A DNA stretch of 64,000 bases from a virus (IMGVR_UViG_3300021962_009794), one strand, 5' to 3'; positions 19,308-64,000 are shown, counted from the stretch's first letter. Notes: a model not told the origin generated them from the sequence alone. Made by a program: numbers and translations.

Positions 19308-19309
19308 GA

Positions 19310-24496: not shown

Positions 24497-24873
24497 TGAG
24501 GAACATTAAACTATATGAGCTTTGGGATAAGAAGGAAGATGATGGGGTGGAGATGCTGGTTAAAATTCTAGATGATCTAAAACCCACAATAATATCTCAC
24601 TTCAATGCAAGAACGATGGATGTGGATTTCGTTGAGGTTTCTGATCCCCAGCAATTTGTTCTTGAGTATTGGCCTAAATCATTCGACAACAGAATACCAC
24701 AAAGAATCTCATACTACATAGACGATATTGCGGAAACCCTTTCAGAAGAAATTGGGACTAAAATAGATTGGCAGTTCTCACCTAATGGTAACGTTCAAAG
24801 ATTGGAATTCAACCTTGAGAATGAAATTGATCCTAAATACTTCAGCGCCAAAGACCGCATGAGGTTCTCTTAA
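24496..24873 (+). CDS. hypothetical protein with MRNIKLYELW propeptide-like N-terminus
   Basis: Member of the N-terminal motif family. Confidence 0.55.
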   Translation: MRNIKLYELWDKKEDDGVEMLVKILDDLKPTIISHFNARTMDVDFVEVSDPQQFVLEYWPKSFDNRIPQRISYYIDDIAETLSEEIGTKIDWQFSPNGNVQRLEFNLENEIDPKYFSAKDRMRFS

Positions 24874-28070: not shown

Positions 28071-28915
28071 AAGACGCACTAGGCGATAGAATGAAAGATT
28101 TCTACGAAGACAGGACAAGAACAAAACTTCCGAGAAGAAGTTACACAATAATCAGAATCGACGGAAAGGCTTTCCATACTTACACAAGAGGTTTAGAAAG
28201 ACCTTTTGATATGTGGCTCATGGAAGACATGGACGCAACTGCAGCTTACCTCTGTAAGAATATTCAGGGTGCTAAATTTGCATACGTTCAGTCAGATGAG
28301 ATCTCAATTCTAATTACAGATTTTGATGATCTAGGAACACACGCTTGGTTTGATAACAATCTACAAAAGATGGCTTCAGTTTCTGCTTCAATGGCAACTG
28401 CCAGATTCAACCAACTTAGATTAATTAGAGAAGCTAAGAACGGGGGAGACTTAGTTAAATCACAGATCTCACAATTTCCGATGGCTATGTTTGACGCCAG
28501 GGTATTTCAAATTCCATTTGCAGCTGAGGTTGAAAACTATTTCATCTGGAGACAGCAAGACGCTACAAGAAACTCTATCAGTTCAGCTGCACAAAGTGTT
28601 TATAGCTCTAAAGAATTACACGGGGTTAAGAGTGACGGTATGCAGGAAATGCTCTTCCAAAAGGGGATCAACTGGAACGATTACAGTCCAAGAGAGAAAA
28701 GAGGATCTGTTATCAGAAAGGTAGAGAAACAATTTGTGAGGAGAGAAACAATGGCAGAGGTAACCGATACTACAGTAGTCATTCCTGAATCTGCTACCTA
28801 TAAAAGAAATGTTTGGGAAGCAGATCCAGAAACACCAATCTTTACACAGAACAGGGAATATCTAAGATCTCTCTTTCCTAATTACGAACAACAAAAAGAG
28901 GAAGAAAATGTTTAG
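28067..28915 (+). CDS. Thg1-like protein (tRNA-His guanylyltransferase family 3'-5' nucleotidyltransferase)
   Basis: RMKDFYEDRTRTKLPRRSYTIIRIDGKAFHTYTRGLERPFD and AYVQSDEISIL follow the Thg1 N-terminal signature. Confidence 0.75.
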   Translation: MKDALGDRMKDFYEDRTRTKLPRRSYTIIRIDGKAFHTYTRGLERPFDMWLMEDMDATAAYLCKNIQGAKFAYVQSDEISILITDFDDLGTHAWFDNNLQKMASVSASMATARFNQLRLIREAKNGGDLVKSQISQFPMAMFDARVFQIPFAAEVENYFIWRQQDATRNSISSAAQSVYSSKELHGVKSDGMQEMLFQKGINWNDYSPREKRGSVIRKVEKQFVRRETMAEVTDTTVVIPESATYKRNVWEADPETPIFTQNREYLRSLFPNYEQQKEEENV

Positions 28916-32948: not shown

Positions 32949-33819
32949 GATCTGTTGGAATAAGACAGATAAAGGTTCAGGTGAGATATTCTATTTAGCA
33001 ATGGAGTACACCGGAAAGGATCGGGACGGAAATGATACTGTTTCGATGAAGACTCTGAGAAAATTCTTTGAGTTAGAAACTTACATGATTAAATCAAAGG
33101 TTTCTAAAGAGCAGATAGCAGATCTGGAAAAGCTACATTCGGTAGATCCCAAAGCTATGCTAATCTCTACTATGGAAGAGGAGGATAAAAGAGGTCAGGA
33201 TAAGCTTATCTATAACATGATTAAGTATGCCGGAACTGTTAACGAAAAGATTGGATGGTCAACCATAGTTTTTAAAGCTAACGAATGGTTTGGATATCAG
33301 CCTAAGTTCAGGGTAAAAGAGGACTCGGACATATTCAGAAAGATAGTTTCCGTTTCTAATTTAATCCATAGGACAACGAGAAGATCAGATGCTGATTTTA
33401 TTATAGTAGGACCTGCTATGGGAGCTAGAATAATGAATCTACCGCAATTCGTTTACAACGACCCAAATCAGCCAGATCTAGATCGTAGTACAGGACTTAT
33501 ACATAAAGTTGGTAATCTCGGAAACAAATTCTCTGTAATAATCAATCCAATACTACATTGGAATGACGAGTCTATAGTTATAGGATCTAATACCTTTGAA
33601 GGACAGGAAGGAGTTTATCAGTATGAGATGGAACCAGAGGTAATTGAGACCGAGGGGATAAGTCCAACGAATTTTATGTCTGAGGTCATTCTCCACTACA
33701 AAAAAAGAATGGCTTTGGTAGCAACAGAAAATGCCCACTTAAAATACTATACTCTTAATACAACTACTAAAAGGCATAACATAGTAACTCATCTTATAGA
33801 TAAGATCTTTAAGAAATAA
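32929..33819 (+). CDS. hypothetical protein (296 aa)
   Basis: ORF. Confidence 0.55.
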   Translation: MQEIKNRICWNKTDKGSGEIFYLAMEYTGKDRDGNDTVSMKTLRKFFELETYMIKSKVSKEQIADLEKLHSVDPKAMLISTMEEEDKRGQDKLIYNMIKYAGTVNEKIGWSTIVFKANEWFGYQPKFRVKEDSDIFRKIVSVSNLIHRTTRRSDADFIIVGPAMGARIMNLPQFVYNDPNQPDLDRSTGLIHKVGNLGNKFSVIINPILHWNDESIVIGSNTFEGQEGVYQYEMEPEVIETEGISPTNFMSEVILHYKKRMALVATENAHLKYYTLNTTTKRHNIVTHLIDKIFKK

Positions 33820-36007: not shown

Positions 36008-36817
36008 CTATCTAAGCTTGTCCATCTGGGCCTGTAGCTCGTCAGGCTGAGCAAGTTTACCTGTGGCTGTAGAGTGGGCGCCAGCTAATATACGAGCCAT
36101 AAATCCTGCAGGTTTTGCTTTAAGATTTCCCAGTTCTTCTTCGTATCCGCTAACAACCTGATCCGAAGGAGAAGAATTTAGGGGAGATAAAGGTATTTTA
36201 GATTTATCGATAGCGGCAGCAAATTCTCTTTCGAACTCAGGAGTTCTATCATTTTTGAAATAATCTATAAATCCAACTAGCTCAGCGCTATCAATTTTTC
36301 TTCTATTAACACCTACCCTATCACCCTCTCCAGATTTCTGGTCATTGGTATTACCCTCGACAGTTACAAATTCTCTTCTGGCAACATCTACGCTTAATAC
36401 TATACCGGTGTGACCCAATCCTTTACCTTTTCGAGTCATTATAAATATTTGTCCAGGTTTTATTAAACTTGGATTTGCTTTCGCATTTTTTATATCTATT
36501 TTTGCGGTACGGTCTGAAGAATCCCACATGTTCATAACACCACCAGTCTTAGGAAGTGGGTTAGCTATGTGAAGCCTTTTTGTTGCTTGATCGAATATGT
36601 AATAAACGAAAGCTGCACACCAGGGTAGGCCTGGTTTAAGACCAACTGAAGAAAGATATTGATTTACCATTCTTCCAGTGTTGGAACCTTTAGGCTCTTC
36701 TTTTATATCTTTATTTCCTGCTATTACTCCAGCAAAAACGTCACCTGCTTGGCCTGGATCTGTGAGATCTATTTGTGCTTCCTTTATGAAGTCTTCGAAT
36801 AATTTAATTCTTTTCAT
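36008..36817 (-). CDS. CHAP-domain peptidoglycan hydrolase with MKRIKLFEDF propeptide-like N-terminus
   Basis: PGLPWCAAFVYYIF (CHAP catalytic Cys context) and GLGHTGIVL (His); N-terminal motif-family member. Confidence 0.65.
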   Translation of the reverse strand: MKRIKLFEDFIKEAQIDLTDPGQAGDVFAGVIAGNKDIKEEPKGSNTGRMVNQYLSSVGLKPGLPWCAAFVYYIFDQATKRLHIANPLPKTGGVMNMWDSSDRTAKIDIKNAKANPSLIKPGQIFIMTRKGKGLGHTGIVLSVDVARREFVTVEGNTNDQKSGEGDRVGVNRRKIDSAELVGFIDYFKNDRTPEFEREFAAAIDKSKIPLSPLNSSPSDQVVSGYEEELGNLKAKPAGFMARILAGAHSTATGKLAQPDELQAQMDKLR

Positions 36818-42286: not shown

Positions 42287-42711
42287 TGCAATCCATAGTT
42301 AACCGTAAGGCCAGATTTGAATACACGTTTATTGACACCTACACTGCGGGGATATGCCTAATTGGCTCCGAAGTTAAGGCTATCAAAGACGGCAGGGCTT
42401 CTATGGTTGACACATATTGCATTTTTAATAAAGAAGAACTTTGGGTTAAGGGACTAGGGATAACTCCTGGTCCTGGCTCATTTCAGCACGAAGCACTCAG
42501 GGACAAGAAACTTCTACTGAGAAAGAAAGAGCTAAAAAAGCTGAGATCGTCTTTGGATAAAGGTCTTACGATAATACCTGTTAAGATATTCGTAAACGAA
42601 AAGAATAGGTTAAAGATGGAAATAGCTTTAGCTAGAGGTAAGAAGCTTTATGACAAAAGGGAATCTATTAAGGAAAGGGATATAGAGAGGGACATGAGAA
42701 GGAACGATTAA
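42286..42711 (+). CDS. smpB: SsrA-binding protein SmpB
   Basis: NRKARFEYTFIDTYTAGICLIGSEVKA...KLLLRKKEL...KIALARGKKLYDKRESIKERD aligns with bacterial SmpB along its whole length. Confidence 0.85.
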   Translation: MQSIVNRKARFEYTFIDTYTAGICLIGSEVKAIKDGRASMVDTYCIFNKEELWVKGLGITPGPGSFQHEALRDKKLLLRKKELKKLRSSLDKGLTIIPVKIFVNEKNRLKMEIALARGKKLYDKRESIKERDIERDMRRND

Positions 42712-43286
42712 GTCCATCTCATAATATCGGTTGCTCTATTATAAAGGCTAACCAATTTATTTAGATCCTGTTCAGTCTTACCAATTTTCTTCAAGAATGA
42801 CTCTTTGGATTTTAAATCCAGATCTTTATAGATACCCATAAAGATTTCGACATCTTCTTTATAGATAGATTCCAGATAATTTTCTATATTAGGGATTTTA
42901 GATAGGTCAAACGGTATGCCTTGTTTATTATATCTTTTTCTAGCCCAGTTAACAAGATATGCAAATCGGGCATTCCAATCTGCCAAAGATACGATATTTG
43001 AATTAAAATTCTTTAATATGTGAGGTGCACCCTTTCCAAACATGCCTTTAATAGTTTTTCTAACCGGACCGTTACCATAGATAGTTATACATTCAGATGG
43101 ATCACTCATATAAAGAACATCATTATAGATTCTCATATTACCATGTCTCCATATTGTAGATGAAGTGCTATCATAAAATCCAAGCTTTTCTAACAACTTA
43201 AATAGTGGCAACCTTTTAACATCATCAATCGTATAATTATACGAAGAAGACTCAAATAAGGCAAAAGTTTGGAGATTTTTCATCAC
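42708..43286 (-). CDS. hypothetical protein with MMKNLQTFALFES propeptide-like N-terminus
   Basis: ORF; TATATATC motif at 43290-43297 just upstream. Confidence 0.5.
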   Translation of the reverse strand: MMKNLQTFALFESSSYNYTIDDVKRLPLFKLLEKLGFYDSTSSTIWRHGNMRIYNDVLYMSDPSECITIYGNGPVRKTIKGMFGKGAPHILKNFNSNIVSLADWNARFAYLVNWARKRYNKQGIPFDLSKIPNIENYLESIYKEDVEIFMGIYKDLDLKSKESFLKKIGKTEQDLNKLVSLYNRATDIMRWT

Positions 43287-48111: not shown

Positions 48112-48182
48112 AGTCAGGTGGCGGAATTGGTAGACGCTAGTTATTTATACGAAAGTTACAGGTTCGAATCCTGTCCTGACTA
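48112..48182 (+). tRNA. tRNA-like element (Leu-type D arm, aberrant anticodon region)
   Basis: Acceptor AGTCAGG/CCTGACT; D-arm GCGG-AATTGGTAGA-CGC identical to a bacterial tRNA-Leu; T-arm ACAGG-TTCGAAT-CCTGT; region between D and T arms is only about 20 nt and has no 5-bp anticodon stem (only a small AC-GAAA-GT hairpin). Confidence 0.4.
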
Positions 48183-51111: not shown

Positions 51112-52548
51112 TTACTTTTGATAATCTCTGATTACCACTTTGTTTACCTTCAAGTTAGGCGTTTGAATTCCGCCACTCTTATAAACAACAACATCATATT
51201 TGTCTGAAGTGTTAATCTCGTATTTGAAAACAGTCATTAGCTTACCGTCTTCGCTAACTGGATTACAACATCCTTTAAGACATGTTTTGTTTCTAGGGTC
51301 ACTATGGTTAGCACCAAAGAATGTCATAACACCTACGAAAGATTCGCTCTGCATGTCATATGGTTTACCTTCAGCGTGATTAACATAAACTTCATAGAAT
51401 CCGGTAGGATCTGTGTCGAATGTTGTGTAGATCTCTAAAAGAGTTTTTTGATGATTATACTTAGCAGGCTTATTTAAAGTGGCTACGTGAGTAGCAGCTT
51501 CTTTTAGAATTTTATTAGATGACTCAGAACCTATAATTTGTTTTGGTCCTATGTTAGCATCAGAAGCTTTTAAATTCTCCTTAACCTTTACGTCATCATA
51601 ATCATAGTCCATGTTGTAAACGATGGCTAATACCTCCTCCGGAGTGTAAACAACAGATTTACCATTCTCGTCGAAGAATTGATATTTCCATGGGTTGTCT
51701 TTTAACTGCTGTAGAGTAATCTTTTTACCGTTTGGAGAGTTTAACCATTGCTGAAACACTCTATCAATATTAGCGTGGTGAGCCCAGAAAATAGGATCGA
51801 AAGCTGCACTCGGTACTTCTGACATCATACCAAAATGAGAATTACGTTGATAGATCTTGTTGTAGTACCAAACAGATCCTGGATTGTTACCAGATCCGAT
51901 ATAGTTGTGCATTTGTCCGTGAATGTTCTGATCAAAGTAAGAATTGAATGTTTGGTAGTCAGTGATCTGCATCATCTTAGGATAAGTGCTCTGAATAACT
52001 CTTAATGTTCCGCCGCTGATTGGGTGACCGTTATTTAAAGAATCAAGTCTTGCTTCCTCGTATAAAGAACTGTTAACATCTCTCCATTTCTTAGGCATGA
52101 TCTTATCTCTCTTGTCGTAGTTAGTGTAACCCCAATAAGGTAATGCGAAATCAGATTTACCTGAAAGTTTTCTTACGATCTTTTCAAAATGCCAGATGTA
52201 TAATCTGTGCCAGATAAGGAAATTGATTTCTTCAGCACCACTGTGAGAGTGCGTGCACTCATCCCAAGCCATTTTTAATTCTGTCCAGTCGCTATATGAT
52301 TCACATAACTTATTAGAGTCGATATGTGAAGGAACCCAGTGAATAGCAGCTTGATAGTACCAGCTGGTTGGATCGTCACATCCTTTTAGTTTCATAACAG
52401 TCATTGCGCTATCAAGAGCTTCGATGTCAGCCAAAGCCTCAGACGAGTTGGCATTTTTTCTCACATATCTTAAATCGTTTTCGCTAGTAGTACACGAAGA
52501 TATGGCCGTGACTAATAGGGCAAATAGAATTACAATTTTTGTTTTCAT
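51112..52548 (-). CDS. secreted tyrosinase (type-3 copper polyphenol oxidase) lipoprotein
   Basis: Signal peptide plus lipobox MKTKIVILFALLVTAISSC; CuA site H...FLIWHRLYIWHFE; CuB site HGQMHNYIG...DPIFWAHHANIDR. Confidence 0.7.
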   Translation of the reverse strand: MKTKIVILFALLVTAISSCTTSENDLRYVRKNANSSEALADIEALDSAMTVMKLKGCDDPTSWYYQAAIHWVPSHIDSNKLCESYSDWTELKMAWDECTHSHSGAEEINFLIWHRLYIWHFEKIVRKLSGKSDFALPYWGYTNYDKRDKIMPKKWRDVNSSLYEEARLDSLNNGHPISGGTLRVIQSTYPKMMQITDYQTFNSYFDQNIHGQMHNYIGSGNNPGSVWYYNKIYQRNSHFGMMSEVPSAAFDPIFWAHHANIDRVFQQWLNSPNGKKITLQQLKDNPWKYQFFDENGKSVVYTPEEVLAIVYNMDYDYDDVKVKENLKASDANIGPKQIIGSESSNKILKEAATHVATLNKPAKYNHQKTLLEIYTTFDTDPTGFYEVYVNHAEGKPYDMQSESFVGVMTFFGANHSDPRNKTCLKGCCNPVSEDGKLMTVFKYEINTSDKYDVVVYKSGGIQTPNLKVNKVVIRDYQK

Positions 52549-53535: not shown

Positions 53536-54159
53536 TTATTGAAATTTGGTTGCTAGGTTAACTAGATTCTGAAAGTATCCCTTCCACTGAGGATCTAAGG
53601 CAACTAATTCTTGCATAGTAAATTTCTCAGGATTTCCTTTTAGATCAAGATCTTTACCGATTCTTTTATGAACGTTAAGGTAGCAATAATATCCAGATAG
53701 TGCCGGTGTAATAGTTTTCTTTGGCCCATTAACTTCGGCATTAAAATCCATATCAGCAAATGACTTATCCTTGGTAACATATCCAGCTATGAAAGCAGTT
53801 GGGAAATATCCAGTTTCTAATTGGGATTCTTCTTTTCTAACCGCGTTATTCCAAACACCTGCTCCTTTAGCCATACTCATGATCGAAAAGCAGCAATCAG
53901 CAAATCCCTCAAATTTAAAAGTTGATTTAGGAACCATACCGTAGTTAGGAACCTTCAAAGATTTACCAGCAAAGCTGGCTGCGAATTGTTTACAAGCTGC
54001 AAAATACTCAGAGTTCTTATCTCTATCGCTAGCTTCTTCGCCTTTAACCTTGGCTAAATAATCCTCAACCTCTACGCCTTTAGTTGCTTCGGGAGACTCT
54101 AGAGTCTCTGCGTTTGCGGCCTCGAAAATGTAGGATTCGAATAATTTAATACGTTTCAT
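53536..54159 (-). CDS. hypothetical protein with MKRIKLFESY propeptide-like N-terminus
   Basis: ORF 53536..54198 trimmed to the ATG that sits 19 nt downstream of the promoter motif at 54178-54185. Confidence 0.55.
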   Translation of the reverse strand: MKRIKLFESYIFEAANAETLESPEATKGVEVEDYLAKVKGEEASDRDKNSEYFAACKQFAASFAGKSLKVPNYGMVPKSTFKFEGFADCCFSIMSMAKGAGVWNNAVRKEESQLETGYFPTAFIAGYVTKDKSFADMDFNAEVNGPKKTITPALSGYYCYLNVHKRIGKDLDLKGNPEKFTMQELVALDPQWKGYFQNLVNLATKFQ

Positions 54160-54177: not shown

Positions 54178-54185
54178 TATATATC
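54178..54185 (-). promoter_or_regulatory. GATATATA-type promoter-like motif (minus orientation)
   Basis: 19 nt upstream of the minus-strand ATG at 54159. Confidence 0.35.
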
Positions 54186-55268
54186 TTAGTTGAACCATCC
54201 ACCTTGTAGACCCCTAGCCAGCTTGGAGAGATCTCTAATTCCAGTTCTTTTCAGTACGCCCTCTTTAGTATCAGGGTAAGCATCAAGTATGGTTATTTTA
54301 AGTGGATTGCTTTTAAAGTATGAATCAAGGATCTCGTTGCTCAATATTGTTGTGACCAAAGACCTCGCTTTATCATCATACCCCGGCTTAGCATCGTGAT
54401 TGGGTAATATGTTATATCCTCCGCCTACTTTGTAATATGTTTTGACACTACCTAATTCCAATACTTTAAGACATGTCTCAACATCAAAAGGTTTAATGTC
54501 AAAAAATCTTGTCATTAAATATTCAGCGCCGAAAGATAAATTCAGATCCTTTAAACTTTCCAATTCTGCGGTGCCTATATTAATCCCACCTTTAATACCT
54601 GCGGGGAATCCTTTTGTTGACTTTATACCTCCCCACACACTAATTTTTTTAACACTCGAAGGTGCAAAATCCTCTATGGAATAAATATCCCTCCCTATCA
54701 CATCAATGCTAAATTCTCCCTTTATTTTACCAAACTTGAATCCGATAGGATTATTGTCATTGTTGTAAATGTCTAGTTTAACCGCACCTTCGACGTCAAC
54801 TGAATTTGTATTGGGATTCCATTTCCAAGGGGCTTTAGTTGATTTGTTTATTAGGAGTATATCTTCTTTTGTCAAAGTTCCAGTTGCTTCTGGATTCATC
54901 CTCTTCATTTCCTTTGACCATCTATCCTTTAAATAATTAAAAAGATCCTCAAGGGTAAATGCGGTCTTATATTGCTTAATAAATCCAGAGCTTACACCCT
55001 TGTCCCTGATGTAACCCGACGATTGTAAAACAACTCCGCTTGGATACATGTATGGAACTTCTCTATTAACCACCATGATGGTACCATTTTTAGCCTGGAT
55101 AGGTGTGGTAACGTCTTCGAATCCCATTTCCTCGAGTTCTTTCCATAAATCCATCTCTTTCCAGTTTGTAGGCCATTTTGGATTTCCCTCCGCTTTAAAT
55201 TCTTCAGACAGAAGAATTCTCCTGTCAGAGGAATTTTGATATAGATCGTACTCAAGTATTCTTCTCAT
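54186..55268 (-). CDS. hypothetical protein (360 aa) with MRRILEYDLY propeptide-like N-terminus
   Basis: ORF. Confidence 0.55.
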   Translation of the reverse strand: MRRILEYDLYQNSSDRRILLSEEFKAEGNPKWPTNWKEMDLWKELEEMGFEDVTTPIQAKNGTIMVVNREVPYMYPSGVVLQSSGYIRDKGVSSGFIKQYKTAFTLEDLFNYLKDRWSKEMKRMNPEATGTLTKEDILLINKSTKAPWKWNPNTNSVDVEGAVKLDIYNNDNNPIGFKFGKIKGEFSIDVIGRDIYSIEDFAPSSVKKISVWGGIKSTKGFPAGIKGGINIGTAELESLKDLNLSFGAEYLMTRFFDIKPFDVETCLKVLELGSVKTYYKVGGGYNILPNHDAKPGYDDKARSLVTTILSNEILDSYFKSNPLKITILDAYPDTKEGVLKRTGIRDLSKLARGLQGGWFN

Positions 55269-56098
55269 TATAAATTGTTTCTGAATTCTTTAAATGTTCT
55301 GAAAGATTCTGATTCATTTGGCTTCTCGTCGGTGCTTAATTCTGTACCTTTCTCTTTCTCCCAATGGAATAGTGGTGTGTTCCAAGCAATCTCGAAAGTA
55401 TCCACTGCGTCTCTATATGATTCAGGGGATTCTTCGTTAGCGTCTCTTGTGTACTGCCAGCCCATGAAAAGCTCTTCAGGTACTTGGAATCCAAAGAATT
55501 CCAAAACCTTTCTTTGTGTGGTTAAGCTCTGATCAACCTGCCAGTTTTGACCTATCACAACCAAACCCGCCATTATATTCTCAACTGTGCTTTTCTCACC
55601 GAGTGTTGTGTGCATGTTTTCTATCCAGTCAAGTCTTTCTATGACCTTCTGGTAAATTGCATTAACGCTTCCCCATCTTTGTGATCCGAAGAATATGACT
55701 GCCTGGCTATCATAGATTGCGTTTGCTATCTTATAGAGTTCATCATCTTCGAAGTCATGTGAAGCCCAGCATCTAAGATGCCCGTGTGGGTTCTTTACAT
55801 CGTCTTTAACAGCAGATTCTTTAACGCCGCAGTTATTACCATGTACCTCACTAACACATCCTAAACAATTATGTATATTCAGTTTAGCAGCATCTATAAT
55901 CTCAACCTTAATATCACGTTGTTTTAGCTTATCTGCTAAGTTTCTAGCAAGCTGTGATGATTTTGGGCTCTCGCCAAATTTCTCGACGTAAGGGCTTCTG
56001 CTGGAGGTTGTAATAAAAGTCACCTTCTTGCATGGAGTAAGTTTCTCAATGAACCTCCTTACATCCTCTATCTCAAATCCGTATTTTACGTCTATCAT
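55268..56098 (-). CDS. hypothetical protein, possibly flavodoxin-fold
   Basis: VTFITTSSRSP...IIDAAKLNIHNCLGC resembles NAD(P)H-dependent FMN-reductase/flavodoxin-like proteins; weak. Confidence 0.5.
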   Translation of the reverse strand: MIDVKYGFEIEDVRRFIEKLTPCKKVTFITTSSRSPYVEKFGESPKSSQLARNLADKLKQRDIKVEIIDAAKLNIHNCLGCVSEVHGNNCGVKESAVKDDVKNPHGHLRCWASHDFEDDELYKIANAIYDSQAVIFFGSQRWGSVNAIYQKVIERLDWIENMHTTLGEKSTVENIMAGLVVIGQNWQVDQSLTTQRKVLEFFGFQVPEELFMGWQYTRDANEESPESYRDAVDTFEIAWNTPLFHWEKEKGTELSTDEKPNESESFRTFKEFRNNL

Positions 56099-56605: not shown

Positions 56606-57061
56606 ATGATGAAATTTATCAGAACCTTTGATGATTACGAGAATCAAATGGTTCCAACCAGTTTTAAAGTTACCGAGCCAGGAGTCAAAAATATTGCGGA
56701 CCAATTTCTAAGGGATCTTGGAAAGGATTACGATCTAAGGGTTGGCAAAGAGTTTGATCCGAAGAAAGGTAACTGTGCTTGGTATGTCCAAGAATTTTAT
56801 CAATGGGCGGAGAATAATAGAACACCAGTTAGAATAGTTTACTTTCCGGAGACAGAGAAAGCTAAAGATGCTCACATAGCAATTTTAATTGACGATTTAG
56901 TGCTCGATTTCGCTCATAAACAGTTTTCTAAAGACAAGAAAGAGAAATACGCTATATTGCCTTTAAAAGCTTATAAAAAGTACGGTTATTCGGATAAGAT
57001 GGAACTTTTGGACGAGGTTCCTAGCTGGATCGAAGACATTTACCCTTTAGACGAGAAATAG
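56606..57061 (+). CDS. hypothetical protein (151 aa)
   Basis: ORF. Confidence 0.5.
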   Translation: MMKFIRTFDDYENQMVPTSFKVTEPGVKNIADQFLRDLGKDYDLRVGKEFDPKKGNCAWYVQEFYQWAENNRTPVRIVYFPETEKAKDAHIAILIDDLVLDFAHKQFSKDKKEKYAILPLKAYKKYGYSDKMELLDEVPSWIEDIYPLDEK

Positions 57062-57560: not shown

Positions 57561-59246
57561 TTATATTCCATAGAAGCTTCTGGTTGCCTCGAAGTTCTGA
57601 GATATTTGAGAAGCGGTTAGGGCTGAGTTATACATCCTTACAACACCAAACTTACCATTGAACCATTGTCCGAATGTTGCACCCCCGTCGAAAGATCCCA
57701 TATATAACGAATGTGTTGTGTTTTTAATACTGGCAAAGGAGTGACTGTTACTTCCTTGGCTAACCCCATTAACATAAAGAGCAATTGAGTTTGAAGCAAC
57801 ATTAGTCCAGACTCCTACAATCTGATACCAAGTATTCGTTGACAATGTATAAGAAGGTGAAGTAATCGAAGTGGTGCCGTTACCAACCTCCATGTATGTT
57901 GAGCCTGAAGAATTTGTTCTAATACCATACCCCCAATCAGCTGCGTTACCTCCGTCAGTCTTACCTATCACGCATCTACTAGATCCAGCTATAACGGAGT
58001 GATTGATCCAAATCTCTACGGTCCAATCACCAGATCCTGGTTCTAATGTTGCGCTATCTGCTGTCGATGCAGTTGCATTTGTACCGTTGTAATTTAAGTA
58101 TGGATTGGTAAAGGTAACGTTGGTTAGTGTACTGGTCAAGGAGTTACCTGACATGTCACTTAATGATGTTCCCGATCCGGAATAACTATATAAATCTCCA
58201 GGATTATAGTAGAGAACTAGATTCTGAAGTACTGGAGAAAGGTATTTAGATGCGCCAGTATTATAGATTGACTGAACGCTAGAGAAATTTAGACCAGTAT
58301 TATAAACAAGAACCTCTGCTATCTTACCCGGGAAATATTCTGAGCCGTTTGTAACCCCTATAGTTAAGTTATTAGCATTCGGAACCGCATGACCTGATCC
58401 TGGGGTGTCTGAAGCTGCAGTGGCCCCATTTACCCAAATTGTTCTAGTTGTCCCGTTGAATGCTGCAACCACGTTAAACCATTGGAGAGATCTAAATCCG
58501 GAAGGATAAACCGCTAGATCGTTATTCCACCAATAGTTAACCAATCCATTAGTAGCAAGTATTCTGAAAGCATTCACCTGATTGTTTGAACCGTAATTAC
58601 CCCATCCGATCAATCCATATGCTCCAGCCATAGAATTGGCATTAATCCATAGACTAATAGTATATTGATCATTCTGTGTCGGAATAAGACTGGTTGAAGA
58701 GAAACTTACGTAAGATAAAGATCCGGTAAAATACATGTTATCTGGACCATTTGAACTATAAGTGACTGAGTTAAGAGTTCCGTTATTTCCGTTACCTGAG
58801 AGATCATACCAAGTTGATCCGCTTCCCGAATATGATGATGGATTCGAAGCATCCAGATATAAAACCATTCCGGAAGGTATAGTTGTAAACGAAGTCCAGT
58901 ACCCGTTGGTGTTTAGCCATGTTTTAGCGGCACTTCCTGTTGAAAAAGGTCCTCCACCAGAGAGTCTAGCAACAACATTAGAAATCGATATGAAAGACGA
59001 TTCGGTTAGATCAGTAGACCTATAAAATCCAACAGATCCAGAAACACCAGTTATTGGAGTTGGTTGGGTGTCACCAGGAACAGGTTCTGCGATAACATAT
59101 CCAGTATCCTCGTCTGGTCCATTCCACCACTCAAGACCCGTAGCAGAAAATCCTGCTGTGGGATAGCCTACAGCTAAACTACCAACCTGTTCAGTTCCCG
59201 CTATAGCTGATCCTGTATTGTATGAAAAGGGTCTTGCTGTTGCCAT
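57561..59246 (-). CDS. LamG/concanavalin-A-like double-domain protein (virion or fibre protein candidate)
   Basis: Two blocks with the LamG pattern (W.N....G..GL.G.....N..R.....G...W.N.......W.....NG; TVEIWINHS...YQIVGVWTN...LYVNG); rich in S/T/N/G. Confidence 0.55.
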   Translation of the reverse strand: MATARPFSYNTGSAIAGTEQVGSLAVGYPTAGFSATGLEWWNGPDEDTGYVIAEPVPGDTQPTPITGVSGSVGFYRSTDLTESSFISISNVVARLSGGGPFSTGSAAKTWLNTNGYWTSFTTIPSGMVLYLDASNPSSYSGSGSTWYDLSGNGNNGTLNSVTYSSNGPDNMYFTGSLSYVSFSSTSLIPTQNDQYTISLWINANSMAGAYGLIGWGNYGSNNQVNAFRILATNGLVNYWWNNDLAVYPSGFRSLQWFNVVAAFNGTTRTIWVNGATAASDTPGSGHAVPNANNLTIGVTNGSEYFPGKIAEVLVYNTGLNFSSVQSIYNTGASKYLSPVLQNLVLYYNPGDLYSYSGSGTSLSDMSGNSLTSTLTNVTFTNPYLNYNGTNATASTADSATLEPGSGDWTVEIWINHSVIAGSSRCVIGKTDGGNAADWGYGIRTNSSGSTYMEVGNGTTSITSPSYTLSTNTWYQIVGVWTNVASNSIALYVNGVSQGSNSHSFASIKNTTHSLYMGSFDGGATFGQWFNGKFGVVRMYNSALTASQISQNFEATRSFYGI

Positions 59247-59252
59247 GTTAAT

Positions 59253-59260
59253 TATATATC
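59253..59260 (-). promoter_or_regulatory. GATATATA-type promoter-like motif (minus orientation)
   Basis: 7 nt upstream of the minus-strand start at 59246. Confidence 0.35.
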
Positions 59261-59261
59261 A

Positions 59262-59286
59262 CAAAAAAAGCAGGGATGAACCTGCT
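59262..59286 (-). terminator. rho-independent terminator (minus strand)
   Basis: gcagg-gatgaa-cctgc hairpin with the T-run on the minus strand (plus-strand A-run 59263-59269); follows minus gene 59309..59899. Confidence 0.65.
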
Positions 59287-59308
59287 CTTTCTATTATGTA
59301 ATTGGGAT

Positions 59309-59899
59309 TTAAAATTTCACTCCAAATTTCTTAACAATGCCATTAAGTTTTGCAAGTTCTTCCTCGTTTAATTCCTCTTTCAACCAATAAGAGAGTTTTG
59401 TTAATCTTAGATTCGGATTCTTCTTATAGAATTCTTCTCTTGCTTTCCAATAAGCCTCTACGTTTCCTGTACCGCCATCTTTTTTCCAGAAATTCATGCT
59501 TGATATAACGTCCTTCATCATAGCAGGAAATATGTTCCATCTATTAGAAACCTGCTTACTGAATGCGTCTACTTTACCTGAGATCAATTCACCAAAGAAA
59601 GCTAAACCAGACCCACCGCCTGAAGAGTAGTTAAAATCAAACAGATCCCAAAGTGCCATAAGCTGAATTAGTTCTGCCTTGGTCTTAATCTTAGAAAAGA
59701 CGGAGAATATTGCATCCTCATCAGTTCCTGTACCTTGCATTGCTTTCCATAAAGTTTTACAGTTTTCTGCTGCCTGCTTTGCCGCCGGATTATCTTTAAT
59801 GTACTTAGCAATAACAGCCACCTTGTTTCTGTTATAAGCATCCTCTAGGATTGGCTCTGAAGAAGAATCGAATGTTTCGTATAATTTAATGTACTTCAT
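59309..59899 (-). CDS. hypothetical protein with MKYIKLYETF propeptide-like N-terminus
   Basis: ORF. Confidence 0.55.
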   Translation of the reverse strand: MKYIKLYETFDSSSEPILEDAYNRNKVAVIAKYIKDNPAAKQAAENCKTLWKAMQGTGTDEDAIFSVFSKIKTKAELIQLMALWDLFDFNYSSGGGSGLAFFGELISGKVDAFSKQVSNRWNIFPAMMKDVISSMNFWKKDGGTGNVEAYWKAREEFYKKNPNLRLTKLSYWLKEELNEEELAKLNGIVKKFGVKF

Positions 59900-59929: not shown

Positions 59930-60829
59930 TTAAATCATGCCTTTAATTTTGGTATATGTTGATAAAGCTTTGTACTTTCTGATCTCCTCTTGACTTAAAG
60001 CAGGATTGTCCTTGTACATCAGAATTCTATCCTCATCTGGCATGTCAGGCCAAAATTCTTCTAGTGCTTCCGTATATGTTCTTCTTCGACTTCCCCCTCC
60101 TTGATTCATTATCTCTATAATATTTTTTAGAGTGCCTGGAGAAACTGGGTTGTCCCGGCAGAAAATCCCGTTAGTCTTTGGTGCACCTTCTAGAGACACG
60201 ATAAGATTTCTACTACAGTAGATATCCTTCACTACCTCTGGTGCTCCTACTAATGAGGTGAGCTTATTGTCGCTACAGTTCAATGAGCTTAATAGTTCCC
60301 TAGGTGATCCTTCTAAAGTTGTGAGCTTGTTTTCAGATGCGTGAAGAGTATAGTAGACATTCTGGGGTGCTCCTACTAGTGAGGTGAGTTTGTTATTAGA
60401 GCAATCAAAAACTCTAGCAACCTTTTCTGGTGCGCCCTCTAAAGTTTCCAATATATTCACACTGCAATCAAAATCTCCACCAACTTCCCTCGGAGATCCT
60501 ATTAGGTTCTTAAGGGAGTTCTGTGCGCAGATAAAATTCGCACCAACAAAAACGGGTGAGCCAACTAAGGAGGTGAGAGCGTTGGAGCTGCAATCGAAAC
60601 TGCCCTTAATCTCTCCGAATTCTATTCCTTTAAAGTCTCGTAATTTTTGTCCCTGACAGACGAATTTCCCGTAAACATCAACCTTACCTGTTGAAGGATT
60701 ATACTCCCATGATCCATACGCTCCACCCAACACGCCCTTATCAAGCCATCTCATCTGTTCTTTAGTGAACACCTTTCTGATTGGCTCTGATTCGGATTCA
60801 AATACGTGGTATGGTGTAACGTGCTTCAT
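59930..60829 (-). CDS. repeat protein (about 23-aa LTSLEGAP-type leucine-rich-like repeats) with MKHVTPYHVFES N-terminus and conserved C-terminal module
   Basis: Repeats G.P..V.G.F.CS.N.LTSL.GAP; the C-terminal W..MPDEDRILMY...EE.RKYKAL..Y.KIK module is shared with 62015..62554 and 62583..63194. Confidence 0.55.
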   Translation of the reverse strand: MKHVTPYHVFESESEPIRKVFTKEQMRWLDKGVLGGAYGSWEYNPSTGKVDVYGKFVCQGQKLRDFKGIEFGEIKGSFDCSSNALTSLVGSPVFVGANFICAQNSLKNLIGSPREVGGDFDCSVNILETLEGAPEKVARVFDCSNNKLTSLVGAPQNVYYTLHASENKLTTLEGSPRELLSSLNCSDNKLTSLVGAPEVVKDIYCSRNLIVSLEGAPKTNGIFCRDNPVSPGTLKNIIEIMNQGGGSRRRTYTEALEEFWPDMPDEDRILMYKDNPALSQEEIRKYKALSTYTKIKGMI

Positions 60830-60833
60830 AATT

Positions 60834-60841
60834 TATATATC
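60834..60841 (-). promoter_or_regulatory. GATATATA-type promoter-like motif (minus orientation)
   Basis: 5 nt upstream of the minus-strand start at 60829. Confidence 0.35.
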
Positions 60842-60843
60842 CG

Positions 60844-60873
60844 CAAAAAAAGCAGACAAAAGCCTGCTTTTTA
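60844..60873. terminator. bidirectional-looking rho-independent terminator
   Basis: A-run, agcag...ctgct hairpin, TTTTT; follows minus gene 60891..61250. Confidence 0.6.
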
Positions 60874-60890
60874 GATTATGTAATTGATTC

Positions 60891-61250
60891 TTATGCTCTG
60901 TTCTTGATTCTTACAAGCTTATCATAAAGGAATCCTGCCTCGTCTTCAACATTTTGTAGATCTAAAGTCTTACCCTTATAAATAATCTCTGGAGTGTTCT
61001 TGTCGACAAGAAAAGAGTTGTCATTTATCCAAGCAACAATCACACCTGGTTTAATCTCTCTTACGTTACTTACCCAATCCTGCTGGCGAGCAGCTGAGGT
61101 AGCATTATGCAATGTTTCCAAAGATTTTCTGTCTTCTTTATTCTCGAATCCTAGTGCTTTCTTAGCACCGCTAGCAATTCTAGAAAAGAACCCTGCGGGT
61201 TTTTCCATTGGGCCTTCTTTGAAATCTTCGAATAGTTGGAGGTTTTTCAT
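60891..61250 (-). CDS. hypothetical protein with MKNLQLFEDF propeptide-like N-terminus
   Basis: ORF. Confidence 0.5.
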   Translation of the reverse strand: MKNLQLFEDFKEGPMEKPAGFFSRIASGAKKALGFENKEDRKSLETLHNATSAARQQDWVSNVREIKPGVIVAWINDNSFLVDKNTPEIIYKGKTLDLQNVEDEAGFLYDKLVRIKNRA

Positions 61251-61291
61251 TCAGTTCGTAATTTTTTATTCTTTATATATTCCGAACCAGA

Positions 61292-61978
61292 CTATTTCTT
61301 CTCAGTCATAGTAGGAATTGGAGTTCCAACAGGGTAAGGGAATCCTTGTTTAGCTGCTGTTACTGAAGTCTGCCCATTTTTAACAGGAACTGCTATACGT
61401 AAAGGAACTGCAGCTTCATTAAGTGGTCCGTAAACTTTAGCTAACACTATGCCAGTCTCTGTAGTGTCGAAGATCACACCAGGCATGGCAAACATGTTGC
61501 TCTCAGATGTAGCTGGATCTTCCATGTTGATCGTGAATGCTCTGTTCACTGGACTCATCATCTCCCATTGCTTATTTGCAGGGTTGAACTGAGGAATAGT
61601 TGTTGTGGTGTCGAAGTACCAGAATAAACTCCAAACTGTCTTATCACTTCCGTCTGGGGTTTGGAAGGCGGTAGCCACGTTGAAATCTCCCCAAGTACCA
61701 CCACTTCCATACATGGCTAGATTAGAGATAGAAGGTCCGTCAAGTACAGGACAGATAGCGCATCCCTCTTTATATTCAACACCTTGGATAACAATTGTCT
61801 TGCCGGTAGGTACTGCAGCAGATGCTCCACAGAAAGCAAATTTGCCTTTGTGAATTCTAAGCACACCAGCTTCATTCTCTTGTGCAACTTCTATTTGGGT
61901 CTCATGCTTCTTCTCTGAGCATGCTGTAAAGGCAAGCATTGCGGCTGCCATTAGTAATAGTTTTGTTGTTTTCATCAT
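61292..61978 (-). CDS. putative lipoprotein (228 aa)
   Basis: MMKTTKLLLMAAAMLAFTAC signal peptide plus lipobox; promoter motif at 61999-62006. Confidence 0.55.
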   Translation of the reverse strand: MMKTTKLLLMAAAMLAFTACSEKKHETQIEVAQENEAGVLRIHKGKFAFCGASAAVPTGKTIVIQGVEYKEGCAICPVLDGPSISNLAMYGSGGTWGDFNVATAFQTPDGSDKTVWSLFWYFDTTTTIPQFNPANKQWEMMSPVNRAFTINMEDPATSESNMFAMPGVIFDTTETGIVLAKVYGPLNEAAVPLRIAVPVKNGQTSVTAAKQGFPYPVGTPIPTMTEKK

Positions 61979-61998
61979 GGTTTATTATTTTATTACCC

Positions 61999-62006
61999 TA
62001 TATATC
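61999..62006 (-). promoter_or_regulatory. GATATATA-type promoter-like motif (minus orientation)
   Basis: 21 nt upstream of the minus-strand start at 61978. Confidence 0.35.
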
Positions 62007-62014
62007 GGGTGAAA

Positions 62015-62554
62015 TTAGATCACGTCTTTTATTCTATTGTAGAGTTTAAAAGCTTTCAGCTTTCTCTCCTCTTCGGGACTCACCCATTTTAAATCTGGTG
62101 TATATAAAGCTGCCTTGGTGTTGTCGCTAAGTGATGGCCACACCATCTCCAATGATTTTGGGTCCAGATTTTTCTCAATAGCCTCCATAGCTTCCGCTCT
62201 TTCCTCTTTGAAGTATTCTCTGTTCTCCTCCCATATATCATCCTCTGTTACTTCCTCTCCCGGAGATAAGCCATCACCATGTTCAATCGCATCGCCTATT
62301 AGAACCCCTCTGTTTAGCCACACATCGGTATATCCTGGTCCCTCTTTTGTCAGATCAACGAGTATAGAGAGGTCGGTATTCAAAGTTTCGGCAAATTCAT
62401 CAAGTTCATCGAGAAGATCCTCCGGCGGATCATCACCTTCAATAAACCAGCTCTCCCCTGATAGGGCTTTGATCTTATAGAATATTATAAGATCTTCTTT
62501 ATTAAATTTATCAAATTCGGATTCAAAAACTGTATATGGTGTGACGTGCTTCAT
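62015..62554 (-). CDS. hypothetical acidic protein with MKHVTPYTVFES N-terminus and shared C-terminal module
   Basis: ORF 62015..62650 trimmed to the ATG 6 nt downstream of the promoter motif at 62560-62567; C-terminal W...DLKWVSPEEERKLKAFKLYNRIKDVI. Confidence 0.5.
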   Translation of the reverse strand: MKHVTPYTVFESEFDKFNKEDLIIFYKIKALSGESWFIEGDDPPEDLLDELDEFAETLNTDLSILVDLTKEGPGYTDVWLNRGVLIGDAIEHGDGLSPGEEVTEDDIWEENREYFKEERAEAMEAIEKNLDPKSLEMVWPSLSDNTKAALYTPDLKWVSPEEERKLKAFKLYNRIKDVI

Positions 62555-62559
62555 AGAAC

Positions 62560-62567
62560 TATATATC
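62560..62567 (-). promoter_or_regulatory. GATATATA-type promoter-like motif (minus orientation)
   Basis: 6 nt upstream of the ATG at 62554. Confidence 0.35.
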
Positions 62568-62582
62568 CATGGATAAGGTGCG

Positions 62583-63194
62583 TCATAGCATGTTCTTGAT
62601 GTTGCTATAAAACAGAAAGGCCTCAATCTTTCTTTTCTCCTCGGAACCAATCCAATAAAAATTTGGTCTGTATAAAAGAACCTGATCCTCTATAGGAATC
62701 TCGCTCCATAGAAGTTCAACTGAATCCAGGTAGTTCTGATATAAAAGTCCTCCCATGAGGTGGGCTATTTTGTGAAGAACCTCTTCAGAAACTGGATTCG
62801 TTGAGACCCATAGCGCGCCACCGATCTTCCTGGGTAATCCCTCCAGACTGGTGAGCTGGTTTTTATTAAGGGTTAGATGTCCACCAACCTCACTAGGTGC
62901 GTTCTTCAGAGAGGTGAGGGGGTTGCTGGTGAGATACAGGTGACTCAAGATCTCCCTAGGGAATCCATCCAGAGTGGTGAACAGGTTGTCATCGGCGTTG
63001 AAGTACCCTGTGACCGTTCCAAACCTCACGCCCTTCAGATCTCTCAGACCCTGACGGCTGCAATCGAAATTACCCTTCACGCTCACCAGCCCAGTCGAGG
63101 CATCGTGGCTCAGATTGCCGCTGGTGCAGGAGGAGAGCCAATCAATTTGCTCTCTGCTTAGGACTGGGAGTTGTGGATTAGGAACAGTTCTCAT
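62583..63194 (-). CDS. GC-rich paralog of the 59930..60829 repeat protein, lacking the N-terminal propeptide motif
   Basis: STGLVSVKGNFDCSRQGLRDLKGVRFG, LTSLEG repeats and C-terminal W.EIPIEDQVLLY...EEKRKIEAF.FYSNIKNML match the paralog; start set at M55 of the track ORF; codon usage visibly GC-richer than neighbours. Confidence 0.45.
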   Translation of the reverse strand: MRTVPNPQLPVLSREQIDWLSSCTSGNLSHDASTGLVSVKGNFDCSRQGLRDLKGVRFGTVTGYFNADDNLFTTLDGFPREILSHLYLTSNPLTSLKNAPSEVGGHLTLNKNQLTSLEGLPRKIGGALWVSTNPVSEEVLHKIAHLMGGLLYQNYLDSVELLWSEIPIEDQVLLYRPNFYWIGSEEKRKIEAFLFYSNIKNML

Positions 63195-63346
63195 TGTACA
63201 GCAAATGTAAGAACTGTTTACGGGCGGAAAAAATGAAACCGGGCCTTTTCGGCCCTTTTCCCCAGATGGGCCCGGCCTCCAAATAGATATAGCATATATT
63301 CCGTCTCTTATAGAGCTAGATAGATAGAGAGATACTAAAGAACAGC

Positions 63347-63730
63347 ATGAGCACACAATCGCATATAGACAAGGTAAGCATGAAACCTAATCTACTACCA
63401 TACCCACACCATGTAGCAGCACCTAAGATAGAAGCACTAGATCTATCAACGTTCAATAAGCTACAGGCGCACAAGGTCACTAAGTCGCTACAGAAGAGAG
63501 CAGATGAGATAGCGAGCTTAATGAAGTCCTTACAAGAAGACTATGAGCTCAACCTACAGCTCTACTCGGCAACCAGATCTTTCGAGCCTGTACTAGGGGA
63601 GGTGTATCATCTATATGAGAAGCCAGATGGCACCCAGTTCTTAAGCCTTATAGCTCCCACCGAATGGAAGCAGAAGTACCTGTACTCTGGCACACTTAAC
63701 TCAGATGGCACCTGGAGCAGGGTACAGTAG
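63347..63730 (+). CDS. hypothetical protein (127 aa, GC-richer segment)
   Basis: ORF. Confidence 0.4.
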   Translation: MSTQSHIDKVSMKPNLLPYPHHVAAPKIEALDLSTFNKLQAHKVTKSLQKRADEIASLMKSLQEDYELNLQLYSATRSFEPVLGEVYHLYEKPDGTQFLSLIAPTEWKQKYLYSGTLNSDGTWSRVQ

Positions 63731-63735
63731 TCAAA

Positions 63736-63744
63736 GATATATAG
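63736..63744 (+). promoter_or_regulatory. GATATATAG promoter-like motif
   Basis: 5 nt upstream of the ATG at 63749; shows the phage motif persists in the GC-richer segment. Confidence 0.35.
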
Positions 63745-63748
63745 AGGC

Positions 63749-64000
63749 ATGAGACACCTACAGAAATACAGAGGATTTGGGATCAAAGAGAACATCACCC
63801 AAACAGAAGGCTGGGAGATTAGCGACAACTCCCTCTATAAGAAATACGTGTTCGAAGACTTCAATGTTGCCATGGAGTTTATGAACGAAGTAGCAGAGGT
63901 GTGTAACCAAATGAATCACCATCCCAAGTGGACCAACATCTATAAGACAGTAGAGTGCTGGCTCAGAACCCACGACGTGGAAGCCATCACGGATAATGAC
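63749..64000 (+). CDS. pterin-4a-carbinolamine dehydratase (PCD/DCoH), 3' end beyond window
   Basis: EVCNQMNHHPKWTNIYKTVECWLRTHDVEAITDND matches the PCD signature ([EDKH]-x-H-[HN]-P-x...-H-D); open to the window end. Confidence 0.55.
   Translation, partial: MRHLQKYRGFGIKENITQTEGWEISDNSLYKKYVFEDFNVAMEFMNEVAEVCNQMNHHPKWTNIYKTVECWLRTHDVEAITDND

Follow-up and report, generated by a model that had tools for sequence, protein, structure and literature searches.

Introduction

Why should one phage locus encode several proteins that share the same ends and differ in the middle? The question is raised by 64,000 nucleotides of viral DNA (IMGVR_UViG_3300021962_009794; this whole stretch is referred to here as the window) in which three genes lying between positions 59930 and 63194, designated A, B and C, encode proteins with a common C-terminal module. 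The initial annotation of this DNA described the three as a family with a conserved N-terminal prefix, one member of which (C) had lost the prefix and had perhaps been acquired from a relative of higher GC content, and suggested as an alternative that variable middles are exchanged in cassette-like fashion between constant ends. The analysis reported here places A, B and C in a hyperplastic region of independently transcribed cassettes beside a divergent junction of a large uncultured phage. The explanation that we favour, and think probably correct when taken as a whole, is that this region holds fast-evolving leucine-rich repeat (LRR) proteins whose modules recombine between co-circulating phages, with the further and more tentative proposal that a tag on many of its genes works as a packaging signal like that of the phage T4 internal proteins.

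The window is phage DNA with a base composition of ~38% GC, encoding a Dda-like helicase and an RnlA-type RNA ligase in addition to other phage genes. No cultured close relative was found by blastn or megablast, and the helicase has only ~30% identity to anything cultured. At least six independent metagenome assemblies, however, carry near-identical sequence (99.7-100%) on contigs that measure as much as 85 kb in the retrieved set, the longest recorded one being 137 kb, whilst more distant relatives bearing the family are viral contigs of 47-348 kb. Relatives attain sizes of 126-348 kb. Related loci used in the comparisons below are labelled L001, L002, L003, L006, L009, L018-L023, L027 and L028. 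The coordinates of all the features discussed are collected in Table 1.

Three functional paralogues of a phage-restricted LRR family

The similarity between the three proteins is significant in every pairing. BLASTP aligns A with C over their full length (E=5e-25) and B with C over the last 46 amino acids (35%, E=1e-9), whilst A and B are related at the C-terminus (E=2e-6) and share 13 of 19 N-terminal residues. When a profile of the C-terminal module was compared with six-frame open reading frames (ORFs) across the window, only A, B and C were matched, each with E<=2e-24. Their modules are only ~35-40% identical to one another. The module proposed in the initial annotation is thus borne out, B fitting the motif quoted for it only in part, with LSDNT standing at the [MI]P.ED position. 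The ratio of non-synonymous to synonymous substitution rates (dN/dS) is 0.21-0.54 for A, B and C against 0.09-0.11 in neighbouring genes, so that the three are under purifying selection yet evolving faster than their neighbours. Taken together with the steady length of the C orthologues (201-204 amino acids), these ratios indicate that A, B and C are all functional. They are paralogues belonging to a large, unnamed family that is restricted to phages.

The repeats noted initially in two of the copies are present in A and C, but their period is 21 amino acids (63 nt) and not 23: self-match is 0.33 at an offset of 21 residues compared to 0.04 at 23, and the DNA copies are spaced at 63 nt. The consensus, F-x-C-x-x-N-x-L-T-S-L-x-G-x-P-x-x-V-x-G-x, fits the LxxLxLxxNxL criterion of LRRs repeated in tandem every 20-29 amino acids. 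In A the repeats display a ladder of cysteines of the kind seen in InlJ; in C the corresponding position is occupied by A, L, L and V. Matches to library profiles fall below the cutoffs (Pfam LRR_4, 18.8 bits against a cutoff of 27; NCBIfam InlJ, 3.9e-10 and 38.7 bits against a full-length cutoff of 1700); these LRR matches, though sub-threshold, are real. An AlphaFold2 (AF2) model of A, with a predicted local distance difference test score (pLDDT) of 90.9, depicts the protein as a curved LRR solenoid in which disordered residues 1-14 are followed by a short helical cap, the 21-residue repeats and a four-helix bundle. The closest solved folds are the LRR domains of the injected bacterial effectors SspH1, IpaH and YopM, each matched by Foldseek with probability 1.0, and InlJ (PDB 3bz5) was also among the matches. 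For the C-terminal module, on the other hand, Pfam, NCBIfam and PDB sequences yielded no match, and in these same libraries there is no sign of a NEL ubiquitin-ligase domain: all that follows the repeats is the 60-amino acid four-helix module.

How widely is this architecture distributed? A has 3181 relatives at E<=1e-3, none of which is annotated as anything beyond 'hypothetical protein', and the module profile, when run against 1.84 billion representative proteins, returned 87 clusters in which the module is always at the extreme C-terminus. Most of these clusters have 2-10 repeats; a few (P0077, P0079 and P0033) are B-like, with an acidic middle and no repeats. Tag (the prefix of the initial annotation, discussed below) and module occur together in 64 of the 116 best relatives of A. 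The usual layout of the family is therefore a short N-terminal tag, a helical cap, 2-10 tandem 21-amino acid cysteine-ladder LRRs and a C-terminal four-helix module of ~60 amino acids. B departs from this layout, keeping both ends around an acidic, repeat-free middle. Relatives sharing the LRRs alone are found in Vibrio phage SRILMA and in metagenomic phages of 640-735 kb. One metagenomic protein of 131 amino acids (P0040) has an unrelated N-terminal part fused to the family module exactly at the module boundary; it is a recombinant that arose naturally or else an artefact of chimeric assembly.

A fourth, more distant relative of A lies elsewhere in the window (Table 1). Family copy number was seen to range from 2 to 12 per locus, with four members in L018 and twelve in L006 (2856-12562 of a 319-kb contig); L006, L022, L023 and L027 contain head-to-tail arrays of 5-12 members with near-identical ends and differing numbers of repeats.

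The GC-rich island that includes most of gene C

C is visibly richer in GC than its paralogues, as the initial annotation held. Compared with the ~80 window ORFs of at least 100 amino acids, it is the most GC-rich of all, with a GC content of 0.480 and a GC content at third codon positions (GC3) of 0.544 against means of 0.385 (sd 0.027) and 0.361 (sd 0.056), respectively (z ~3.5 and ~3.2), the excess lying mostly at third codon positions. Composition is thus not uniform, but neither is the rise confined to C. The neighbouring DUF2452 gene (63347-63730) has a GC content of 0.464 and a GC3 of 0.523, and GC stays at ~0.45 from there to the end of the window. In L009, a near-identical locus that reaches past the window end, the GC3-rich tract measures ~3.1 kb and takes in a 94-amino acid ORF, a 185-amino acid ORF (GC3 0.68), a 520-bp spacer (GC 0.51), a Pterin_4a gene (GC3 0.64), the DUF2452 gene and the first three quarters of C. 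The island spans the divergent junction and its edge falls inside C, at the start of the C-terminal module: GC is 0.514 in the first part of C and an ordinary 0.375 in the last 48 codons. Two trivial explanations of the step were ruled out. It is not an assembly chimera, the junction being present at 99.7-100% identity in at least six independent assemblies, nor is it a boundary between prophage and host, as small phage-like genes run more than 8 kb farther and the arrangement is the same in relatives.

Was this tract imported from a higher-GC phage, with a single crossover inside the conserved module of a resident family member? The abrupt fall in GC3 at the start of the module, from 0.58 over the first 155 codons of C to 0.44 over the last 48, is what such an event would leave behind, and in a distant 348-kb contig (L021) a GC-rich Pterin_4a gene likewise adjoins a GC-rich family member. 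Across 13 IMG/VR loci, moreover, family members deviate from the local background GC3 in both directions, by +0.10 to +0.15 in AT-rich genomes and by -0.12 to -0.14 in L027 and L028, as expected of mobile genes; this fits genes moving among phages of different composition, and leaves room for an island that is foreign but ancient in origin. Against this, the island is common to all the relatives examined (it is present in L001 and, in a larger form, in L002 and L003), and C orthologues have a GC content of 0.48-0.49 in every one of them, down to 57% protein identity. Any import would have to be old and to have resisted drift towards genome composition since, and no donor has been identified. 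The step itself is also ambiguous: because the C module of L001 is GC-rich (0.486), the fall within C may be due to a later allelic tail swap in this lineage and not to the original junction. We consider import of the tract unlikely, though its probability is far from negligible.

Since the island and the GC content of C are both retained down to 57% identity, the composition is regional and old. C is not a recent single-gene import, and the island, if foreign at all, is old and regional. The earlier proposal that C was acquired from a higher-GC relative is weakly supported at best: what is GC-rich is a ~3.1-kb island that includes unrelated genes and is present in relatives whose C proteins are 57-91% identical. 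A gene that is a compositional outlier need not be a recent import.

Exchange between alleles and gene turnover

Relative to L001 and L020, the upstream cassette and first ~70 nt of A are 95-98% identical and the C-terminal module 92-100% identical, with identity falling to 60-78% over the ~360 nt in between that encode the N-cap and first repeats (Table 1); the corresponding dS values are 0.61 for this middle part and 0.044 for the module. C displays the reverse pattern against L001, being 97-100% identical over positions 91-420 of the gene and 58-75% thereafter, with dS rising from 0.07 in the repeat part to 1.03 in the module. L018 and L020 are each the best match to the window in different segments of C, and a further patch of recombination in C is apparent even against a near-identical strain (Table 1). 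Repeat number varies too: two alleles, L018 792-1604 (270 amino acids) and L019 4038-4976 (312 amino acids), are near-identical save for exactly two 21-amino acid repeats. Mosaic identity is general along these genomes, but in the family genes the breakpoints lie at module boundaries. A special sweep of the LRR part of C, considered for the comparison of the window with L001, was dropped on finding similar stretches of 99-100% identity elsewhere along the genome.

A different way of keeping shared ends alike would be gene conversion between paralogues within one genome, that is, concerted evolution. The near-identical ends of the twelve tandem copies in L006 are in keeping with this, as is the presence on LRR-type and B-type proteins alike of such tail types as AYQGFKGMI. 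Within the window, however, the tails of C and of A or B have no nucleotide similarity by blastn, so that recent conversion between paralogues is not seen in this genome and was rejected; the prefix copies of A and B differ at synonymous sites; and tails group by orthologue and not by genome. As an account of the family at large, concerted evolution is highly improbable. Because the paralogue tails lack nucleotide similarity, the exchange that is seen is between alleles, not paralogues. The suggested exchange of variable middles between constant ends is accordingly real between alleles of related phages but is not seen among the three paralogues themselves.

Whole genes also come and go. The order following the junction is C-B in the window, C-X-B in L020 and C-X1-X2-B in L001, where three more inserted genes follow. 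A diversity-generating retroelement was ruled out as the source of variation, there being no long direct repeat pair in the 56-64 kb region apart from the LRRs, tag and cassettes; no reverse transcriptase was seen among the ~40 of ~100 window ORFs covered by scans, the remaining ORFs not having been scanned. Taken together, these comparisons reveal four ways in which the family changes: homologous recombination between relatives that co-circulate, its breakpoints falling at module boundaries; the gain or loss of entire repeats; tandem duplication, to give 1-12 copies per locus; and insertion or deletion of whole cassettes at a promoter motif.

Promoter-like motifs and mobile cassettes

The motif in question, GATATATA, occurs 20 times in the window where 3.5 occurrences are expected, always oriented with the gene and 4-25 nt upstream of an ATG (examples are at 60834-60841, 62560-62567, 59253-59260, 54178-54185 and 63736-63743), and often follows a stem-loop and T-run. 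Sites resembling those of sigma-70 are not enriched in the window (10 found, 10.7 expected). GATATATA is probably a phage-specific promoter, in which case some transcripts would be leaderless. Each gene of the locus forms its own cassette, comprising the promoter-like motif, ATG, ORF and stem-loop terminator. The cassettes upstream of A and of the LamG gene are ~60 nt each and 81% identical over 43 nt, and comparable units are found upstream of the genes starting at 56451 and 52960. In the window the sequence tttcacccgatatatag stands before a lipoprotein gene, whereas in L001 it is followed by another gene, one that is tagged; this places the insertion-deletion junction between promoter motif and ATG.

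The leader of C, in the divergent intergenic region, contains a hairpin, GGGCCGAAAAGGCCC, followed by a T-run, and since this hairpin is conserved in the orthologues of C, gene callers that continue the ORF into SIWRPGPSGEKG over-extend it. An inverted second copy of the hairpin is found ~0.5 kb past the window end (L009 8017-8103). The hairpin may be an attenuator or a recombination site. The fold of the leader is no more stable than that of shuffled sequence (z = -0.3).

An N-terminal tag shared by unrelated genes

The prefix shared by A and B (MKHVTPYHVFESE and MKHVTPYTVFESE, respectively; 85% nucleotide identity over 41 nt) is absent from C. It was originally taken to be a conserved feature of the three-member family, but this is not so: starts of the same kind head at least 10 unrelated ORFs in the window, as well as unrelated genes inserted at the locus in L001 and L020, which begin MKHIKLFEAF. 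Eleven of 101 window ORFs start with the pattern M[KR]x[ILVMF]xx[FYW]xx[FYW], which has an internal rate of 4e-4 per position, although at least two of the 11 are probably not tags, 22714-23217 having a signal peptide and the start of 13006-13449 being part of a Pfam domain. Among the IMG/VR loci the highest proportion is seen in L021, where 10 of 26 ORFs are tagged. The prefix is therefore a general tag on many unrelated genes rather than a property of the LRR family. Nor do the first 11 residues of C appear to have replaced it, as had been suggested. Since the orthologue of C in the more distant L002 still begins MKHTKTKF, the loss of the tag from C is better read, from these sequences, as decay in place.

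The tag has M1 and K2, frequently K5 as well, carries an aromatic residue at position 7 and ends in hydrophobic-F-E-(S/A). Its aromatic positions 7 and 10 and acidic position 11 are kept in members less than 40% identical to each other, whilst synonymous codons at these positions are mixed (TAC 12/TAT 17, TTC 10/TTT 26, GAA 19/GAG 9). Codon usage at the conserved positions is roughly that seen elsewhere, and this points to a constraint acting mainly at the level of the peptide. Two of the tagged proteins, the 119-amino acid product of 60891-61250 (residues 17-30) and a CHAP hydrolase (near its C-terminus), also have the sequence KPAGF[FM][AS]RI[AL][AS]GA in common.

A capsid-targeting propeptide?

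What might such a peptide do? By analogy with T4, the tag could act like a capsid-targeting propeptide, ending as it does in VFE|S, LFE|D, IFE|S or IKE at residues 9-13, a hydrophobic-x-Glu form that would serve as the cleavage site for a prohead protease. On this view A, B, the CHAP hydrolase and the other tagged proteins would be packaged in the head and injected, with C perhaps representing an untagged version made inside the cell; a CHAP cell-wall hydrolase is a plausible travelling companion of the DNA. The fold of A, and its likeness to YopM, IpaH and InlJ, suggest that the LRR surface would bind a host protein, in which case the fast turnover of the repeats may reflect an arms race. We advance the propeptide function of the tag tentatively, as somewhat less likely than not.

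Several points weigh against it. T4-type prohead protease, scaffold and portal proteins were found neither in the window nor in the related DNA examined, in which the genome is incompletely represented (phmmer with T4 gp20, gp21, gp22, gp23, gp24, gp67 and gp68 gave nothing at E<=1). An ORF of 296 amino acids at 32929-33819 does match Pfam Gp23 above threshold (E=3.9e-10), but it is short and the match is uncorroborated by PDB sequences. The tag resembles the T4 targeting sequence at just four or five positions, in a motif that is itself very short; the Pterin_4a gene, metabolic-looking and thus odd as head cargo, has a tag-like start (MRHLQKYRGF); and the model of B, with a pLDDT of 46, is unusable. 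Finally, codon 2 of the tag favours AAG and codon 3 CAC, beyond background usage, and several starts lie so close to the promoter motif (4-6 nt) that their first codons could instead serve in the translation of leaderless mRNAs.

These last observations lead to the main rival to the capsid-tag reading, according to which the tag has no function as a peptide and is simply the coding end of a mobile start module (promoter, ATG and ~11 codons) that ensures efficient initiation on mRNAs with short leaders or none, and is kept similar by cassette recombination. The 4-6 nt spacing of GATATATA from the ATG in A, B and the LamG gene and the codon preferences just mentioned both suit such a module. So do the insertion-deletion junctions between motif and ATG, and the fact that in the model of A the tag is disordered and lies outside the fold. 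Conservation of residues 7, 10 and 11 by way of mixed synonymous codons is less readily accommodated, however, and many genes have the promoter motif without the tag, the lipoprotein and LamG genes among them. On this evidence we regard a pure start module as unlikely, and more so than targeting to the capsid.

A peptide-level motif on varied proteins, including enzymes, might equally be a sorting or assembly signal for some destination other than the capsid: a membrane, a secretion route, controlled degradation or a phage-made compartment. The family is also found in contigs of jumbo size. The tag nevertheless has no hydrophobic span and none of the features of a signal peptide, and the true lipoprotein encoded at 61292-61978 has a normal signal peptide in its place; no system with such a motif is known in the libraries searched. 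Sorting elsewhere is in our estimation a distinctly poor prospect.

Returning to the capsid-targeting reading, it can be extended into a broader picture, which at present we think somewhat unlikely. In this picture an uncultured lineage of large and jumbo phages would use a portable tag of 11-13 residues (M-K-x-hydrophobic-x-x-Y/F-x-x-F-E), present on ~10% of genes, to load a large and rapidly shuffled set of proteins into the head, amongst them a cell-wall hydrolase, an acidic protein and LRR binders in arrays of as many as 12. Genes captured in frame downstream of a mobile promoter-plus-tag cassette would add new cargo to the set. If the tag is indeed a packaging signal, then the phages that use it inject far more kinds of protein than does T4, and the LRR arrays become candidate anti-defence or host-takeover binders whose targets are directly searchable. 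In metagenomic phage genomes, the tag would also offer a simple marker in the sequence by which to predict the proteins that are injected.

Table 1 Features of the window discussed in the text
Feature	Position	Strand	Description
Gene A	59930-60829	minus	299 aa; 13-aa N-terminal tag, helical N-cap, ~seven 21-aa cysteine-ladder LRRs, four-helix C-terminal module (residues 231-298)
Gene B	62015-62554	minus	179 aa, pI (isoelectric point) 4.3; tag and C-terminal module as in A; acidic middle without repeats
Gene C	62583-63194	minus	203 aa; no tag; three 21-aa LRRs and C-terminal module
Distant fourth relative	54186-55268	minus	360 aa; degenerate repeats, tag-like start MRRILEYDLY, no C-terminal module; BLASTP to A E=1.7e-5
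Divergent allelic block in A	60402-60761	minus	~360 nt; N-cap and first repeats; flanks 90-100% identical to L001/L020
Recombination patch in C	62661-62831	minus	26 of the 28 differences (a 6-nt indel included) that separate the window from a strain of 99.7% identity over 10 kb
GC3-rich island, in-window part	62740-64000		Runs ~1.9 kb past window end, as judged from L009
Regulatory cassette upstream of A	60830-60890	minus	Stem-loop, T-run, then GATATATAA 4 nt before ATG
Second stem-loop and GATATATA cassette	59247-59308	minus	Upstream of LamG-domain gene 57561-59246
C-B spacer	62555-62582	minus	GGATATATAG 4 nt before ATG of B; extra tagged genes inserted here in L020/L001
Divergent intergenic region	63195-63346		C leader with GC-rich hairpin and T-run (63236-63275, minus), downstream of GGAATATATG motif
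Tagged unrelated gene	59309-59899	minus	196 aa; tag MKYIKLYETFDSSSEP
Tagged unrelated gene	60891-61250	minus	119 aa; tag MKNLQLFEDFKE
Tagged unrelated gene	53536-54159	minus	207 aa; tag MKRIKLFESYIFE; GATATATA just upstream of start
Tagged CHAP-domain peptidoglycan hydrolase	36008-36817	minus	Tag MKRIKLFEDFIKE; Pfam CHAP E=5.9e-10
Further tagged unrelated genes	42708-43283, 56606-57061, 24496-24873		

Other genes in the window

Beyond the locus itself, the window encodes a tyrosinase (51112-52548), an FMN-reductase-like protein (55268-56098) and a pterin-4a-carbinolamine dehydratase (63751-64000+, cut by the window end), a combination of auxiliary metabolic genes that is unusual in a phage. 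A set of genes resembling those of RNA repair (9819-10958, 11787-12236, 13006-13449, 19274-20398 and 28067-28915) comprises an RnlA-type ligase, a second RNA ligase with a PHA02142 OB domain, an AAA_33 kinase, a protein with a cREC_REC domain and a Thg1-like tRNA-His guanylyltransferase. The ORF matching Gp23 is located directly after, and overlaps slightly with, that encoding a 626-amino acid SPFH/Band-7 protein (region 31068-33819), and is too short for a normal capsid protein. An Rfam scan of the window identified two tRNAs and nothing else; the second of these (48112-48182, 43 bits) was not reported by ARAGORN.

Comparison with known systems

Phage LRR proteins, variable loci and promoter-terminator cassettes are all of kinds already known. 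This particular LRR family, its C-terminal module and the widespread tag are undescribed in the libraries searched.

The T4 internal proteins are otherwise unrelated to one another, having only a targeting peptide of 10-19 residues in common; within it, targeting is influenced by residues 4 and 7, and cleavage after Glu by residues 8 and 10 (PMC9026906, PMC3012670, PMC5694885). IPII and IPIII begin MKTYQEFIAE and IPI begins MKTFKEF. As in the phages described here, a short N-terminal peptide is the sole common part of fast-changing, non-essential proteins (IPI, IPII, IPIII and Alt) clustered in variable regions, and the peptides are alike in starting M-K-x-x-K/Q-x-F and ending with hydrophobic-x-Glu followed by a small residue (PMC9026906, PMC3012670). 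The tagged cell-wall hydrolase fits a protein that travels with the DNA. There are also clear differences: no sequence homology extends past the motif, neither a head protease nor a scaffold of T4 type was found here, ~10% of ORFs are tagged, and the candidate cargo consists of neutral or acidic LRR proteins (pI 4.3-6.0) in place of small basic ones. Packaging and cleavage in the present case are predictions.

Modular shuffling mediated by promoter early stem-loop (PeSL) elements has been described for T4-type phages (PMC2839356), where, as here, repeated intergenic units of stem-loop terminator and promoter flank orphan genes in hyperplastic regions (PMC2839356). Insertion-deletion junctions between close relatives fall, in a similar way, at the interval between promoter element and ATG. 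The promoter element itself differs, being GATATATA(A/G) near the ATG and not a -35/-10 pair of sigma-70 type with a Shine-Dalgarno sequence. The locus is thus a clear natural case of modular evolution far from T4, with cassettes as the points of insertion and deletion and domain boundaries as the sites of allelic crossover.

With YopM, the LRR domains of SspH1 and IpaH, and InlJ, the family shares a short-period LRR solenoid with a helical N-cap and, in the case of InlJ, a 21-residue repeat with a ladder cysteine. The repeats of these bacterial proteins form a target-binding surface on a protein that is delivered. Unlike the bacterial effectors and internalins, the phage proteins have no NEL ligase domain, secretion signal or cell-wall anchor; they are phage-encoded, 200-350 amino acids in length and end in a four-helix module that has no library match. 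Finally, the LRR, ankyrin and FNIP families of giant viruses and the paralogue arrays of jumbo phages resemble the present family in forming tandem arrays of repeat proteins with variable repeat number in large viral genomes. What sets the present family apart from the giant-virus repeat families is its possession of defined N- and C-terminal modules, which in proteins of the B type are kept even where the repeats themselves are absent.

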